A program made the translations under genes and the position numbers. From Escherichia phage UE-S1, in the sequence record ON568341.1: a DNA stretch of 64,000 nt; one strand, written 5' to 3'. Below, piece by piece: positions 3,008-37,793 of this stretch (within the stretch, counting starts at the first letter, position 1; each line of letters begins with the position of its first letter). The notes under the pieces were generated by a model. It was not told the origin of the DNA. It worked only from the letters and a program-made list of their open reading frames with translations, and ran no database searches.

Positions 3008-3035
3008 TTGACATTGAAAAATAATTATGTATAAT
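3008..3035 (+). promoter_or_regulatory. sigma70-like promoter (TTGACA, 16-nt spacer, TATAAT)
   Basis: TTGACA at 3008-3013 and TATAAT at 3030-3035 read directly; upstream of the ACP-like gene. Confidence 0.45.
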
Positions 3036-3036
3036 T

Positions 3037-3066
3037 AGAGAACTTCATATGGAGTTCTCTTTTTTA
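3037..3066 (+). terminator. intrinsic terminator-like hairpin plus T-run
   Basis: AGAGAACT / AGTTCTCT stem followed by TTTTTT; 90 nt after the stop of 1713..2945. Confidence 0.45.
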
Positions 3067-5636: not shown

Positions 5637-5941
5637 TGGGACATTATATGTTCCAATGATATAATGTATATAGAAAATGACAACGGACATTGAAAAATGG
5701 ACACTGAGAACCTACTTCTCTTGAAAATGTAAAGGATAGATGAGCTTTACCGTTGTAGCGAACAGCAGAAGAAACCTGTTAGAGTACTGGCATTCAAACA
5801 AACACGATATAAGACCACGAATCACGGCGACACGGCTGTATAAAGAACTCCGATAAGCATACAGAGAGTTCCTAGATAGATGTATAAGGTTCGCACCTTA
5901 CCAGATTTGCTAAGGGAGTTCAAGAATTGCGGACGCATTTT

Positions 5942-32825: not shown

Positions 32826-33806
32826 ATGGCTAAAAAAATTAATGAAGCACAAGTTAAAATCGATATCGCAGGTTTAGAATCTGATGATTTGGAAACACTA
32901 TCCCGTATGTTAGCTCTTGCTGGTCAAGCTGAACGTCAAGACCCTGTGGTTGCTGCTCCAGTATCATCTATTGGGTCTATGGCTCCATCTCTACCACCTA
33001 TTGCACCACTAGATCTTGATTCTATTAGTGCCGAAAAAGAAATTGGTGGAATTGAAACTTCAGTTGAAGATCCATTGGCAGCAGCAGTTGATGGTCTTTC
33101 CGCTGATGATGGTGATTTTGGTGCTGACACCGATGAAGTTGGTATTGATGCTGAATTTTCAGAACCAGGCGTAGAAGGTGAAGAAGATTTTTCTCTTGAC
33201 CTTAGTGGTCAACCTCAACTAGAATCAGTTGAAGAAGACGACGATGAGGAAGAAGAAATCATCGAAGAAGAATTCGATTTTAGTCGTATGCTATCTCTTG
33301 CTGGTATTAACGAAGAAGAAGACGACGATTTTTCCGTAGAGGGTAATACTGCTACTGATAGAGAAATGAAAGATACTCAATTTCTACCAGATCTAAGTAT
33401 CTCTGAAGATGAAGAACCATCTGACAGTACTGATTATGGTCCATATAATACTGAAGCTGATGCAGTTCGTGATGGTCAACTTAAGACTAATGGTGTTGAA
33501 GGTGATCATTTTGTTGTAATTGCGAAAGGGAACCAGTTTTATTGGAGACGTGTTGTAGATGAAGATGTTGACAATCGTCCAGAACCAGAGTATTATGACA
33601 ATGAAGGAAACGAAAATCGCGTTCATAAATTTGAACCAAAATCTCCAGGTACTGCATTAGGAGATAACCCACTCAATGTTAATGAAAGTGAAGAAGATGA
33701 TTCACCAGAAGGTAACACTGACTTGGAAGATGACTCTGATGAAGAAGTAGAAGATATTTTCGAAAGTCTCCAAGAAAAATATAAAAAATTTTTAGGAGAC
33801 AAATAA
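32826..33806 (+). CDS. highly acidic hypothetical protein with repeated SRML-x-LAG motif
   Basis: Long Asp/Glu runs (EEDDDEEEEIIEEEFD); LSRMLALAGQ and FSRMLSLAGI repeats. Confidence 0.5.
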   Translation: MAKKINEAQVKIDIAGLESDDLETLSRMLALAGQAERQDPVVAAPVSSIGSMAPSLPPIAPLDLDSISAEKEIGGIETSVEDPLAAAVDGLSADDGDFGADTDEVGIDAEFSEPGVEGEEDFSLDLSGQPQLESVEEDDDEEEEIIEEEFDFSRMLSLAGINEEEDDDFSVEGNTATDREMKDTQFLPDLSISEDEEPSDSTDYGPYNTEADAVRDGQLKTNGVEGDHFVVIAKGNQFYWRRVVDEDVDNRPEPEYYDNEGNENRVHKFEPKSPGTALGDNPLNVNESEEDDSPEGNTDLEDDSDEEVEDIFESLQEKYKKFLGDK

Positions 33807-33807
33807 T

Positions 33808-34203
33808 ATGCAATATAATTATCGTGAACTAGTTGAAGCGTTGGACGAAATCACCGGACGAGATGAAGAAGGAAGTTTTTCCGTTGAAGTTGATTCCGAT
33901 GTTGTAGCAATTGATGTTCTTAAAGATATTACCAAATGTCTCGTTGATATTGTTGATAAGATTAAATCTGGTGAAGATCAAAAAGAAATCGTTGATAAAC
34001 TACAAAAAGCATGTGACATTTTGTCTGACATTCGATATAATGATGAAAGTACTGAAGTCGATGATGATGAAGTGATGGAAGCTATTGCTGGATGTTTTGG
34101 AACTGAAGGTATGGGTCCAACGATTGACAAAGATGGCGTACAGCACTATAATGAACCAGATGCACCATCTTATGCTGCACGCCAAGGTTATGTTGGAGAC
34201 TAA
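33808..34203 (+). CDS. acidic hypothetical protein
   Basis: ORF track; RBS GGAGA. Confidence 0.5.
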   Translation: MQYNYRELVEALDEITGRDEEGSFSVEVDSDVVAIDVLKDITKCLVDIVDKIKSGEDQKEIVDKLQKACDILSDIRYNDESTEVDDDEVMEAIAGCFGTEGMGPTIDKDGVQHYNEPDAPSYAARQGYVGD

Positions 34204-34208
34204 AATAT

Positions 34209-34589
34209 ATGTTTCCTGTACCATCACATAACAGTACTGAATATCAAAATGATGTACTTTCCAAAGTTAGGGAAGTACATGAATCAGATTCAGAAATAAC
34301 AGACCGTATGCTTCTGATGTCAATTTTTGAAAATTTCAGAACTGGCGGTGGTTTACGTCTTAGCAAGTTTGGGTATGGAATTTGTAAAGAAAATAATCTT
34401 TATGAATTTACAAAAATCCCCTTGCAAAGAGAATTTAAAAGTTCTATAATGTTTACATCACTTGACAGAATATGTACTTCACCTTATTATGTTGAAGGTC
34501 AGTACATATATCTGACAGATGCAATGATAATAACTGAATTAACATTGTGTTGTGATGATTTTAAACAATTATTTTCTATTCATATGTAA
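34209..34589 (+). CDS. hypothetical protein
   Basis: ORF track; RBS GGAGA. Confidence 0.45.
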   Translation: MFPVPSHNSTEYQNDVLSKVREVHESDSEITDRMLLMSIFENFRTGGGLRLSKFGYGICKENNLYEFTKIPLQREFKSSIMFTSLDRICTSPYYVEGQYIYLTDAMIITELTLCCDDFKQLFSIHM

Positions 34590-34601
34590 GAAAAATAAAT
34601 G

Positions 34602-34629
34602 TTGACAAGATAGAATGATGTGATATAAT
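34602..34629 (+). promoter_or_regulatory. sigma70-like promoter P1 (TTGACA, 16 nt, TGaTATAAT)
   Basis: Read directly; nearly identical element repeats 93 bp downstream. Confidence 0.5.
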
Positions 34630-34694
34630 AAGCATCAGACATAAAGTTTTCAAGCGGCACAAGATGTGAGTTTGAAAAAAATAAAAAAAAGTGA

Positions 34695-34722
34695 TTGACA
34701 AGTTGAAACGATGTGATATAAT
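34695..34722 (+). promoter_or_regulatory. sigma70-like promoter P2 (TTGACA, 16 nt, TGaTATAAT)
   Basis: Near-duplicate of P1, including the ATGTGATATAAT block. Confidence 0.5.
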
Positions 34723-34822
34723 GTTCACATCAAGGCAGCAAAGAGATTTACCTTTTTAAACACACGGATGATTCATGAAGTAATAAAGGAACTGATAAGT
34801 TAAATTATTTTAACACAGTTCC

Positions 34823-34851
34823 TTTACTTTTGCCCACGGATTGGCTATAAT
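34823..34851 (+). promoter_or_regulatory. possible third promoter (TTTACT, 17 nt, TATAAT)
   Basis: Read directly; 42 nt upstream of the MoxR-like ATG. Confidence 0.3.
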
Positions 34852-34892
34852 AGAAACTTAAACGATTTTATCCAACAAAAGGAAATATATAC

Positions 34893-36218
34893 ATGACTAC
34901 TCAAAACGATATCCTGAATGTTAAACTGACTCCAAAGAAAGCTAAAGAAGCAATGGCACTAGCTGACATGATTCAAGATAGCCTGATGATTTGGGGTAGC
35001 CCAGGTATCGGTAAGTCTGCAATTGCTCGTCAATACGCTGATGAAAATTACCCTCTGCGTAAAGATAACGAAGCTAAAATCGAGTTCATGAAACAACAAA
35101 TTGAAGCTGACCCTGAAAATGCTGATCAGCTACGCCGTGAACTGGCTGCATTTGAAGCTAAACTAATCGACCAAGATACTAACTTCATCGATTTCCGTTT
35201 GTCTCAAATTGAACCAAGTGACCTCCGTGGTATCCCTGTACCAGAGAAGCTTTTCCGTAAAACTGACGGTTCTCTTCTCAAAGAATCTGAGCTTGCTGAA
35301 GCAAAAGATTATGTTGCTGAAACTGCTGTAGTTTGGGCTGCACCTAAAGTGCTGAAATTGCCAGAAGATTGGAAAGGGGTTATTCTGTTTGACGAAATTA
35401 ACTCTGCAATGCCAATTGTTCAGGCAGCGTCTTATCAGCTAATCCTCGACCGTTGTGTTGGTGAGATGAAGCTACCTAAAACTGCACTGATTCTTGCAGC
35501 AGGTAACCGTGAAACTGATGGCGGTGTAACGTTCTCACTGGCTACACCACTACGTGACCGTATGACACACATTGAGATGATTCCTTATCATCAAGATTGG
35601 ATTAACGATTATGCAATTGGTAAACGTTTGAACCCAGCAACTGTTGCGTTCATCAACAACACAGGTTCTAAGTACTTTAACACTCTTAGCCCACAAGATC
35701 CTTCTCACAGTGGTGGTACTTCTCCACGTTCATGGGAAGCTGTAGCACGCTACGAAGATCTCAAGAAAACTAAGACAATTGATAAAGAAGTGTTCCGTGC
35801 AATGATTGCTGGGCGTGTAGGTGAAGGTGTAGCAACTGAATACATTGAGTACGTTGATAACGTTGCTAAACTACCAGATACTATGTCTATTCTGTCTGGT
35901 GAAATCAAAGATATCGATGCAACTCTTGATATTTCTGCGAATTATTTTATTACTTTGAACTTGGTTTATAAAATTATCGACCTGTTCAATGAGAAGCAAG
36001 AACAACGTCTACCAGTGGAAGAATGGGGTAAACTGTGCAACAACTTCATTACCTTCCTTGACCATAACTTCTCTGCAACTCAAGCAGAACTGGCAGTTCT
36101 GGCAATTCGCACCATTACGCTTCATAAGGTTGCGATTTCCATTAAAGATGTACCAGCGTTTAAAGATTTTATCGCTAAGTACTCTGAACTAGTTCGTAAA
36201 GCACGCTCTCTTGGGTAA
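34893..36218 (+). CDS. MoxR-like AAA+ ATPase (AAA_5/CbbQ/CobS-like)
   Basis: Walker A WGSPGIGKSAIARQYA, Walker B VILFDEINSA, downstream AAGNRE; 441 aa single-AAA architecture. Confidence 0.7.
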   Translation: MTTQNDILNVKLTPKKAKEAMALADMIQDSLMIWGSPGIGKSAIARQYADENYPLRKDNEAKIEFMKQQIEADPENADQLRRELAAFEAKLIDQDTNFIDFRLSQIEPSDLRGIPVPEKLFRKTDGSLLKESELAEAKDYVAETAVVWAAPKVLKLPEDWKGVILFDEINSAMPIVQAASYQLILDRCVGEMKLPKTALILAAGNRETDGGVTFSLATPLRDRMTHIEMIPYHQDWINDYAIGKRLNPATVAFINNTGSKYFNTLSPQDPSHSGGTSPRSWEAVARYEDLKKTKTIDKEVFRAMIAGRVGEGVATEYIEYVDNVAKLPDTMSILSGEIKDIDATLDISANYFITLNLVYKIIDLFNEKQEQRLPVEEWGKLCNNFITFLDHNFSATQAELAVLAIRTITLHKVAISIKDVPAFKDFIAKYSELVRKARSLG

Positions 36219-36239
36219 TTAACAAAGAGTGGTTGACAA

Positions 36240-36268
36240 GAAGGATACGATATAGTATCCTTCTTTTA
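36240..36268 (+). terminator. hairpin plus T-run (weak terminator or attenuator between the two module genes)
   Basis: GAAGGATAC gatata GTATCCTTC followed by TTTTATC. Confidence 0.45.
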
Positions 36269-36292
36269 TCTTAACTAAACGAGGAAATATAC

Positions 36293-37717
36293 ATGTCGGA
36301 TAACAAATCTTCATCTAAGTTTAATGAAGTATCACCAGAACTCCAAAAGGAATGTCAAGATCGATTGGTTCTGGCTCGTACATCTTTGATGTTAACTGCT
36401 CCGTTCTTTGGTGTTTTGGCTTCGCGTTTACGTCCTGTTCCTAATAATACATGGTGTCGTACACTAGCAGTTGATGGGAAACATTTATTCTACAATGTAG
36501 AATTTGTTATGGGCATCCAAGATCAATCTAAAAAGAAAGAGTACGAAGATGCTATTCGTGAAAAACACCCAGAGGTTACTGATGAACAATTAAAAGAAAT
36601 GACAGAAGGTCTGACAGATGAAAACCTCATTGCAGTGATTTGTCATGAAATTTTGCATTGTGCTTACGACCACTTCCTTCGTCGTGGAATGCGTGATCCA
36701 CAACGATACAATCGTGCAGCAGATTATGCAATTAACCAAATTATTGTCCGTGAGAAAATTGGAAAAATCCAAAGCTCATGGTTATATGATAAAAAATATG
36801 AAGGAATGACCGCTGAAGAGATTTATATTCTTCTGGAAGATGAAGAACAAAAAGAAGAAGGTGAAGGGAACGGTCAACCACAAAGCGGTGGTGGTGAAGG
36901 TGAAGGTAAAAATCGCGGAACTTTTGGTGATATCAAAGATGGTAAGGGTAAACCAAAAGGTACAACAATTGACCAACATGACGTTCCACAAGAAGGCCAA
37001 GACGGTGGTTCAAGTGAACAGCAAAAACGCGATTATATGGATGATTTCAAAACAGCAATGATGAATGCTGCACGTGCTGGTGGCACACCAGCAGAAATCG
37101 CTCGTATGATTAATAACTTCAAAGAACCAAAGATTGATTGGCGTTCTAAACTTCAACGCACTCTTCGTAGCTGGTTGAAGTCTGATGCAACTTATCAAAA
37201 TCCAGCACGTCGTTCATGGGGTGCAGGTTTTGGTTCTAATGGTTCATTTTATGGTAATCCAATTTATCCAGGGATGAAACCAGATGATGATATTGATATT
37301 GCAATTGCACTCGATGCTTCTGGTTCTATTTCCGAAGACATGCTTCGTGATTTTATTAGTGAAGTTCTTGGTATCACTAAACAATTTAAACAGTTTAAAA
37401 TTCGTATCATGACATTTGATACTGAAGTTTATACTGTAAAAGATTACAAAACTGGTGAAGAACGTAAGATTCTGGAATATCCAGTAAAAGGTGGTGGTGG
37501 TACTGACTTTGAAGCAGTATGGGTTCATATGAAGAATGACAACTATAAGCCTAAACAGCTTGTAATGTTTACTGATGGTGAACCGTGGCAGTCATGGGGT
37601 GATCCTAACTACTGTAAAACACTGTTTGTGATTCACAGTAACCCAAATAAAGTTGCACCATTTGGTGAAACAGTACACTACGAGTATGAAGCAGACAAAA
37701 AACGTCAACGTAGTTAA
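36293..37717 (+). CDS. VWA-domain protein with N-terminal HExxH metallopeptidase-like motif (DUF2201-like partner of MoxR ATPases)
   Basis: HEILHCAYDH zinc-binding-like motif; Gly-rich acidic linker; C-terminal MIDAS-like DASGS followed by FTDGEPW. Confidence 0.65.
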   Translation: MSDNKSSSKFNEVSPELQKECQDRLVLARTSLMLTAPFFGVLASRLRPVPNNTWCRTLAVDGKHLFYNVEFVMGIQDQSKKKEYEDAIREKHPEVTDEQLKEMTEGLTDENLIAVICHEILHCAYDHFLRRGMRDPQRYNRAADYAINQIIVREKIGKIQSSWLYDKKYEGMTAEEIYILLEDEEQKEEGEGNGQPQSGGGEGEGKNRGTFGDIKDGKGKPKGTTIDQHDVPQEGQDGGSSEQQKRDYMDDFKTAMMNAARAGGTPAEIARMINNFKEPKIDWRSKLQRTLRSWLKSDATYQNPARRSWGAGFGSNGSFYGNPIYPGMKPDDDIDIAIALDASGSISEDMLRDFISEVLGITKQFKQFKIRIMTFDTEVYTVKDYKTGEERKILEYPVKGGGGTDFEAVWVHMKNDNYKPKQLVMFTDGEPWQSWGDPNYCKTLFVIHSNPNKVAPFGETVHYEYEADKKRQRS

Positions 37718-37729
37718 GTACTAAATAAT

Positions 37730-37759
37730 GAGAACGGAAATTTTCCGTTCTCTTCTTTT
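37730..37759 (+). terminator. intrinsic terminator
   Basis: GAGAACGGAAA / TTTTCCGTTCTC hairpin followed by TTCTTTT. Confidence 0.6.
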
Positions 37760-37765
37760 ATAAGT

Positions 37766-37793
37766 GAGACAACTCACAAAAATATGATATAAT
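37766..37793 (+). promoter_or_regulatory. possible promoter with extended -10 (TGaTATAAT) and weak -35 (GAGACA)
   Basis: Shares the ATGATATAAT block with P1, P2 and the ClpA-like promoter. Confidence 0.3.

Follow-up and report, generated by a model that had tools for sequence, protein, structure and literature searches.

The intergenic region at positions 34590-34892 of a 64,000-nucleotide stretch of the genome of Escherichia phage UE-S1 (sequence record ON568341.1; the whole stretch is called the window below, and all positions refer to it) is a 303-nt gap between two genes of the plus strand, and it contains two nearly identical promoters of the host type (P1 and P2), a leader, a terminator-type hairpin, and a third promoter-like element (P3) that begins within the hairpin (Table 1). 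The site looks like a previously undescribed cassette, either a promoter with an attenuator or a source of short RNA, and not like a simple stack of promoters. The interpretation favoured here, which has about an even chance of being correct, is that tandem sigma-70 promoters fire into a leader-attenuator ahead of an operon of two genes that encode an AAA+ ATPase and a protein with a VWA-like domain. The phage is an Asteriusvirus-like jumbo coliphage. The surrounding segment, 33800-36300, matched 43 phage records, the best of which (approximately 95% identical) are Escherichia phages 121Q, PBECO4, G17, phAPEC6 and other Asteriusvirus, with genomes of approximately 350 kb.

Tandem promoters of the host type

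In sequence, P1 and P2 show all the hallmarks of strong sigma-70 promoters of the host. They have GATGTGATATAAT in common, and in both the TGTGA directly 5' of TATAAT is a full TRTGn extended -10 element; a consensus scan gave each of them 12/12 with TG. The two almost duplicated TTGACA-16-TGnTATAAT elements pointed out in the first-pass annotation of this DNA are confirmed by direct reading of the sequence. A-tracts resembling UP elements precede both promoters, and positions -46 to -38 (AAAAATAAA in P1, AAAAAAAGT in P2) each match eight of nine positions of AAAAAARNR, the consensus that Estrem et al. are said to have given for the proximal UP subsite. An exact TTGACA-N13-TGNTATAAT is expected from base composition about 0.003 times per window, counting both strands, and P1 and P2 are the only two such sequences in the 64 kb; with two or fewer mismatches allowed there are 10 occurrences versus 2.8 expected, a number reached in none of 100 shuffles. 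Transcription is predicted to start at approximately 34634-34637 from P1, 34727-34729 from P2 and 34858 from P3. The last of these, which had also been put forward as a possible promoter, is present as described, and is a different and weaker site than P1 and P2, with a -35 hexamer formed from bases of the hairpin's 3' arm and tail.

In an alignment of five Asteriusvirus lineages (the window, ph0011, TH47, JNE01 and A4, approximately 79-91% identical here), the hexamers of P1 and P2 are essentially invariant and the spacers are variable, the exception being TTGACG as the -35 of P2 in ph0011. The hexamers of P1 are unchanged in all five lineages while its spacer differs, and the -10 and extended element of P2 are likewise unchanged; in 121Q and SP27, the -10 of P1 is TACAAT. 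Because the hexamers are kept while the spacers drift, the comparison indicates that P1 and P2 are under purifying selection. The intergenic region as a whole is 85% identical, versus 72-73% at third codon positions of the flanking genes. The segment of P3 (34827-34851) is 94% conserved in Asteriusvirus, and its equivalents have TGGTATAAT (with TG) in the -10 region of JNE01, TATCAT in RaK2 and TACAAT in the metagenomic relative L042; no equivalent was seen in lineages L016-L041, and P3 is confined to the clade of Asteriusvirus, RaK2 and L042. Five further sigma-70-like sites of at least 11/12, among them a perfect TTGACA-17-TATAAT at 34124-34152, lie within the two to three open reading frames (ORFs) 5' of P1 (33421-34490, plus strand), far more densely than in the rest of the window. 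They were rejected as parts of a promoter array: their hexamers are lost at synonymous positions in TH47, A4 and JNE01, and for lack of this conservation they look like chance or lineage-specific sites.

P1 and P2 are two copies of one tandemly duplicated promoter unit of approximately 93 nt. Positions 34591-34629 and 34684-34722 form a 39-nt direct repeat with 77% identity and a spacing of 93 nt, and the part that is demonstrably duplicated extends only from about -50 to +1; homology of the units 3' of the -10 was rejected, as 428 of 1000 shuffles reached its alignment score. Phage SP27 (L009, positions 507-696) possesses a perfect 94-bp tandem duplication (2.0 copies) of the P2 unit that extends from the A-run to ACACGG, with its junction in the A-run adjoining ACACGG, and so has three promoters; its extra copy may have arisen by recent evolution or adaptation in the laboratory, or may be an artefact of assembly. 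L042 has just one TTGACA promoter, preceded by an A-tract, and RaK2 has one intact promoter that aligns with P1, a leader of approximately 110 nt and no recognisable second copy. P1 and P2 being duplicates of one unit and members of one class, the sequence gives no ground for assigning them to separate phases of transcription, and the possible multi-phase transcription suggested in the first-pass annotation is not supported.

Several smaller elements accompany the two promoters. A palindrome, GATGTGA-N8-TCACATC (34710-34731), spans the -10 of P2, and the intergenic region has four occurrences of the motif ATGTGA/TCACAT. The small hairpin predicted between P1 and P2 (Table 1), the sequence of which is largely conserved in Asteriusvirus, has no U-tail and is therefore not terminator-like. 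The palindrome and this hairpin could be operator-like sites or simply transcript structure. A TGAAACG motif in the spacer of P2 was considered as part of a hybrid early/middle promoter and rejected as a coincidence because it lies 6 nt from the -10 here and 16 nt from it in phage CBB.

The terminator-type hairpin and its leader

The inverted repeat 3' of P2 is, by comparison with its counterparts in related phages, a conserved, covarying, terminator-type hairpin. It carries a terminator annotation in G17, its orthologue stands in the terminator list of CBB (Torf215), and other terminators of the phage look similar. The arms, TAAAGGAACTG and CAGTTCCTTTA, are 11 nt long, 100% complementary and 21 nt apart, forming a stem of 11 bp with four G-C pairs and a loop that holds an inner helix (GUUAAA/UUUAAC); the repeat had been placed at about 34784-34822, and is indeed present there but slightly longer, ending at 34826. 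In 21 lineages a hairpin with a U-rich tail occupies this position, its start lying 81-111 nt 5' of the ATG of the ATPase gene. These lineages were drawn from annotated phages, IMG/VR contigs and metagenomes and comprise Asteriusvirus, Alcyoneusvirus, Mimasvirus, Eneladusvirus and unclassified contigs, with ATPase identity down to 54% among the collected loci. Their hairpins have at least seven distinct arm sequences, including GGAACUG/CAGUUCC, GGACUG/CAGUCC, GGGACU/AGUCCC, GACACUG/CAGUGUC, GCACUGA/UCAGUGC, GCACUGG/CCAGUGC and GGCUCC/GGAGCC, and a similar predicted stability (free energy, dG, of -11.7 to -17.1 kcal/mol); those of the relatives have stems of 8-12 bp, loops of 4-9 nt, and tails of CUUUUUUG or CUCUUUUG.

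Compensatory changes are frequent: both partners have changed in seven of the 11 pairs, and pairing is kept in 91% of cells, a level that none of 500 shuffles reached and that compares with 22-52% in slid controls, the percentage paired being inflated by the construction of the alignment, in which the arms were located by complementarity and the loops replaced by GAAA. Such trimmed constructs were used for counting because MAFFT mis-registers the 5' arms of long-loop hairpins, and the MAFFT alignment of whole leaders was dropped. A covariance model was rejected as the definition of a specific family; it recovers L016, L017 and L034 and also hits generic terminators.

A promoter is located 5' of the hairpin in all 21 lineages, mostly at a distance of approximately 45-55 nt (approximately 110 nt in RaK2), and the type of promoter differs: TGAAAC(G/A)-N13-TGGTATAAT in phages of the GAP32, CBB and Eneladusvirus types (L040 and L041 have a related form); TGGGACA...TGATATAAT in L016, L017 and L034; and TTGACA in L042, RaK2 and Asteriusvirus. 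The usual order elsewhere in these genomes is a terminator followed by a promoter, or an overlap of the two. No sigma-70-like promoter was seen between the hairpin and the ATG in the GAP32-like and CBB-like lineages, L018, L019, L040 and L041, so on a reading of these sequences expression of the operon there would have to cross the hairpin. In GAP32 (L011, approximately 1028-1040) and at the equivalent sites of L012 and L018-L030, TGAAACG begins with the very TGA that stops the upstream ORF, and thus the end of a gene and a promoter overlap in phages of the GAP32, CBB and Eneladusvirus types.

The hairpin is flanked by two boxes with the invariant core A-N-GGA, in which N varies. The upstream box is present in 18 of the 21 lineages, 5-16 nt 5' of the stem (shuffled flanks give 3.0), and the downstream box also in 18 of 21 (0.8 in shuffles), being absent in L040 and L041. 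Within Asteriusvirus the hairpin loop and leader are 92-94% conserved, and the segment 34761-34783 is 92% identical in four relatives versus 72-73% at third codon positions of the flanking genes; the leader also carries a conserved primary-sequence motif, UUAAG. The P2 transcript folds better than its shuffles (z = -3.5). No complementarity above chance was found between the leader RNA and other sequences of the window, the longest match being 11 nt versus a shuffle mean of 11.6. Several other roles for these elements were considered and rejected: the downstream box is not a -35 hexamer, its distance to -10-like hexamers varying between lineages; the mini-ORFs of 2-33 codons near the upstream box have no conserved peptide or length, and their ATG is missing in L017 and L022 and shifted in the window, so that a leader peptide is not indicated; and ncRNA003 of phage PA5oct is not a homologue of the leader, being located elsewhere and having no relation to the ATPase gene. 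Among 74 terminators of CBB, three have GGAUU in the loop versus roughly one expected, a difference that is not clearly significant (PMC5259590, Table S8). The loop of one of these three, Torf277 (AACGGATTT), is identical to the downstream box of the window locus.

Flanking genes and other sites of the window

The GC fraction of the window is 0.342, and the ORFs from 285 to 40883 run on the plus strand, with no strand switch at the locus. Upstream, a 126-aa ORF closes a run of same-strand genes annotated as virion structural proteins. Downstream, the ATPase is annotated as similar to N4 gp24 in RaK2 and Muenster; the label of MoxR-like, given to it in the first-pass annotation, is reasonable by architecture, but does not correspond to a hit at a curated threshold. 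A minus-strand ORF over the promoters (34576-34728, 50 aa; the PHANOTATE call M2K_0554 in SHEFM2K) was rejected as spurious. It has no PHROG match, and it is probably a false gene call because the A/T homopolymer runs that it crosses contain non-triplet indels (1, 2 and 11 nt) between relatives; PHANOTATE-based records place a minus-strand 'hypothetical protein' over the promoter region (L046, phage SHEFM2K, 190-417). The search of the window found no tRNA or tmRNA and no match at the gathering score of Rfam 15, and nothing came near that score in the intergenic region and seven related loci.

Table 1. Features of the intergenic region, its flanking genes and related sites
Feature	Position	Strand	Description
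Upstream ORF, 126 aa	34209-34589	+	121Q gp562, phrog_15638
A-tract 5' of P1	34591-34601	+	AAAAATAAATG; UP-element-like proximal subsite
P1	34602-34629	+	TTGACA 34602-34607, 16-nt spacer, TATAAT 34624-34629; TGTGA extended -10 at 34619-34623
Small hairpin between P1 and P2	34647-34678	+	UUUUCAAGC..CACAAGAUGUG..UUUGAAAA; predicted fold of P1 transcript
A-tract 5' of P2	34674-34694	+	GAAAAAAATAAAAAAAAGTGA; UP-like
P2	34695-34722	+	TTGACA 34695-34700, 16-nt spacer, TATAAT 34717-34722; TGTGA extended -10 at 34712-34716
Leader, P2 start to hairpin	34729-34783	+	holds upstream ANGGA box ACGGAT 34764-34769
Terminator-type hairpin	34784-34832	+	arms 34784-34794 / 34816-34826, tail CUUUUG, dG -15.7 kcal/mol
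P3	34823-34851	+	TTTACT 34823-34828, 17 nt, TATAAT 34846-34851; 10/12, without TG
Downstream ANGGA box	34836-34841	+	ACGGAT; begins 9-12 nt past stem in relatives
Shine-Dalgarno sequence	34879-34883	+	AAGGA, ahead of ATPase ATG at 34893
AAA+ ATPase, 441 aa	34893-36218	+	phrog_1297 match; weak AAA and AAA_3 Pfam hits
474-aa protein	36293-37717	+	DUF2201_N metallopeptidase and VWA-like domain; second gene of module
Two-gene module (ATPase, VWA)	34893-37717	+	closed by bidirectional terminator 37730-37752
Second-class promoter-like sites	5638-5665, 16671-16698, 37766-37793, 59635-59662	+	in or at edge of inter-ORF gaps

Other sites of the window resemble parts of the locus. Between the ATPase and VWA genes (36233-36265, plus strand), a hairpin, AAGAAGGATAC..GTATCCTTCTT, is followed by TTATCTT and overlaps a TTGACA-17-TATCCT site; it may be a second internal attenuator or a promoter inside the two-gene module. 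At 37730-37793, a symmetric bidirectional terminator-like hairpin (GAGAACGGAAA/TTTCCGTTCTC) that contains ACGGAA closes the module, and a GAGACA-type promoter directly 3' of it (37766-37793) gives the usual order of terminator, then promoter. This promoter belongs to a second promoter-like class, with TGATATAAT at a 16-nt spacing and (T)GGGACA, GAGACA or TAGACA replacing TTGACA. The class is similar to the predicted 'TGAAACG / TGGAACG' promoters of CBB and GAP32, and a phage-encoded sigma factor may be needed for its use. At 3008-3060 (plus strand), a single base separates a 12/12 TTGACA-16-TATAAT from the hairpin 3' of it, AGAGAACT..AGTTCTCT, which has a T-run, a layout that places the predicted start inside the terminator of the preceding gene.

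Predicted transcription and its alternatives

Host sigma-70 RNA polymerase is expected to read P1 and P2, and because they combine a consensus -35, a 16-nt spacer, TRTGn, a consensus -10 and a UP-like A-tract, they should be among the strongest starts of the phage. Transcripts would not run straight into the operon, but into a leader of approximately 55 nt from P2 or 150 nt from P1 that ends in an intrinsic-terminator-type hairpin 65 nt before the ATG. The majority would then end at approximately 34828-34834, yielding RNAs of approximately 105 and 200 nt, and the remaining read-through fraction, together with transcripts from P3, would express the ATPase-VWA operon; P3, built on the terminator tail, may provide expression independent of the hairpin in Asteriusvirus. 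Of the two outcomes proposed in the first-pass annotation, a short transcript made between the promoters fits best, a conserved covarying hairpin being always 3' of a promoter and 5' of the ATPase gene; strong transcription of the downstream module agrees with the hallmarks of the promoters, but transcripts from P1 and P2 must cross the hairpin. The order of promoter, leader, terminator and operon may be ancestral to the RaK2-like jumbo phages. Relatives have a single promoter of a phage type (TGAAACG or TGGGACA, N13, TGnTATAAT), and the Asteriusvirus lineage would have upgraded it to the host consensus and duplicated it. The changes peculiar to Asteriusvirus (consensus -35, duplication, the bypass promoter P3 and a looser hairpin) would all lead to more output across or around the hairpin.

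A familiar parallel is the late cassette pR'-tR' of phage lambda, with its 6S RNA and Q antitermination. In both cases a strong sigma-70 promoter is followed by an intrinsic terminator ahead of an operon, so that by default a short terminated RNA would be made and expression of the operon would need read-through; in contrast to lambda, no Q-like protein, Q-binding element or promoter-proximal -10-like pause was identified here, and the phage locus has the bypass promoter P3. Tandem strong promoters for the host polymerase are known from T7 (A1, A2 and A3) and from rrn operons (P1-P2 with UP elements), which, like this locus, have strong sigma-70 promoters in twos or threes that point the same way, approximately 100 bp apart, with UP elements, at the head of an operon; unlike P1 and P2, they are not known to be near-identical duplicates or to be followed by an intrinsic terminator within 55-150 nt. 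The synthetic tac promoter has the same hexamers and 16-bp spacer, whereas P1 and P2 are natural and conserved and have in addition the TRTGn extended -10 and the A-tract. Within the phage family, both 'RpoD-like promoters preceded by an UP-like element' and 'TGAAACG-type' promoters have been predicted for CBB and GAP32 (PMC5259590). These are predictions only. P1 and P2 are built in the same way as the RpoD-like class, AAAAA(T/G)nnnTTGAC... and then TATAAT, which in CBB clusters in the presumed early region of small ORFs and here stands ahead of the ATPase operon; GAP32-like, CBB-like and Eneladusvirus relatives have the TGAAACG class at the orthologous site. The lists published for CBB do not include the promoter at the orthologous locus, nor do they remark on its pairing with the terminator Torf215 (PMC5259590).

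Several observations weigh against a leader-attenuator, in addition to the inflated pairing percentage. The window hairpin has a long, partly paired loop of 21 nt and an interrupted U-tract (UUUACUUUUG), because of which it is possibly a weak terminator, weaker than those of its relatives, and a simple terminator scan made no call at it. The covariance model built from short-loop relatives scores the window site at 22 bits (E-value 0.13), no better than unrelated terminators, so that it is synteny and intermediate sequences that support the orthology of the window hairpin. The literature searched contains no experimental mapping of transcription, or of 5' or 3' ends, for these phages, only motif predictions. 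The hairpin could also primarily serve the late virion-protein operon upstream. Such a role is central to the reading, judged rather improbable, that the locus has no special logic: a leaky terminator of the upstream operon, with P1 and P2 as ordinary promoters for the ATPase operon, placed by chance between stop codon and terminator. The upstream genes of the same strand are indeed annotated as virion structural proteins, the hairpin is annotated as the terminator of the upstream gene in G17 and its orthologue in CBB (L020) is listed as Torf215, it resembles the other, generic terminators of the phage, and promoters of compact genomes often abut or overlap terminators. However, the order of promoter, approximately 50 nt and terminator is kept in 21 of 21 lineages and is reversed or overlapping elsewhere, ANGGA boxes flank the hairpin at constrained distances, and in Asteriusvirus even the loop and leader are conserved (92-94%).

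These same boxes and the leader bear on a further alternative, namely an independent small-RNA gene whose terminated product of approximately 60-105 nt acts in trans by base pairing or protein binding, its link to the ATPase gene being synteny only and the duplication serving to raise the dose. This is unlikely, though several facts speak for it: promoter, short transcript and terminator form the classic layout of a small-RNA gene and are kept over several genera, the UUAAG and ANGGA motifs of the leader exceed what a plain terminator needs, the fold of the P2 transcript surpasses its shuffles, and very strong duplicated promoters would suit an abundant RNA. Yet the second conserved ANGGA box falls outside such an RNA, just 3' of the terminator; read-through evidently matters in GAP32-like relatives, which show no separate promoter for the ATPase operon; the leader varies in length from approximately 45 to 110 nt; and neither complementarity beyond chance in the window nor a matching Rfam family was found. 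Least probable by far is an element that acts as DNA, whether a transcription-activated origin of replication or a protein-binding site made of the palindrome and the direct ANGGAT repeats. Parallels for an origin exist in the primary origin of T7 (tandem promoters and an AT-rich region) and in the T4 origins that combine a promoter with an unwinding element, and the locus has tandem promoters and A-tracts as well as a palindrome and direct repeats on its flanks. The T4-like replication genes reported in this phage family (PMC5259590) also count in its favour. A hairpin with a U-tail in one orientation and compensatory changes is, however, what an RNA terminator predicts, the direction of the genes does not switch at the locus, and nothing specific to an origin was found there, GC skew not having been examined.

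A more speculative extension, which is quite doubtful, is that a conserved and very highly expressed RNA element of the phage uses the A-N-GGA boxes to engage host CsrA or RsmA, or a phage protein of similar specificity. Leaders and sponge RNAs that bind CsrA/RsmA carry A(N)GGA motifs, with the consensus RUACARGGAUGU from systematic evolution of ligands by exponential enrichment (SELEX), and Enterobacterales carry CsrA or RsmA; the named isolates with the cassette infect Enterobacterales (E. coli, Salmonella, Klebsiella, Cronobacter and Erwinia). In L042 the upstream box, GUACAUGGAUGA, agrees with this consensus in 10 of its 12 positions. The short RNA of the window has ACGGA plus AAGGA in the 5' arm, and the placement of the motifs in hairpin loops is inconsistent; whereas CsrA-binding RNAs preferably have at least two motifs in hairpin loops, 10-60 nt apart, there are one or two motifs per short RNA here. 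If true, the RNA might be a viral decoy that titrates the regulator, which would explain super-consensus promoters that duplicate, or a protein-controlled antiterminator in which binding at the upstream box and the AAGGA of the 5' arm blocks the terminator and links the output of the ATPase-VWA operon to the physiology of the host.

Strong host promoters in tandem are a well-known kind of element, as are terminators close to a promoter, and the cassette is of an ordinary kind, with modest novelty as a family: it is not described in the literature searched and has no Rfam family, and current records annotate a terminator or a spurious minus-strand ORF at the locus. Its interest lies in two natural, near-consensus host promoters, the copy number of which is still changing between isolates (one, two or three), coupled to a conserved cassette of promoter, leader and terminator before a widely conserved pair of phage genes for an AAA+ ATPase and a VWA protein. 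P1 and P2 are also compact candidates for very strong promoters in E. coli. If the short RNA or the read-through is regulated, the cassette would be the first cis-regulatory RNA or small-RNA family to be defined for this clade of phages.

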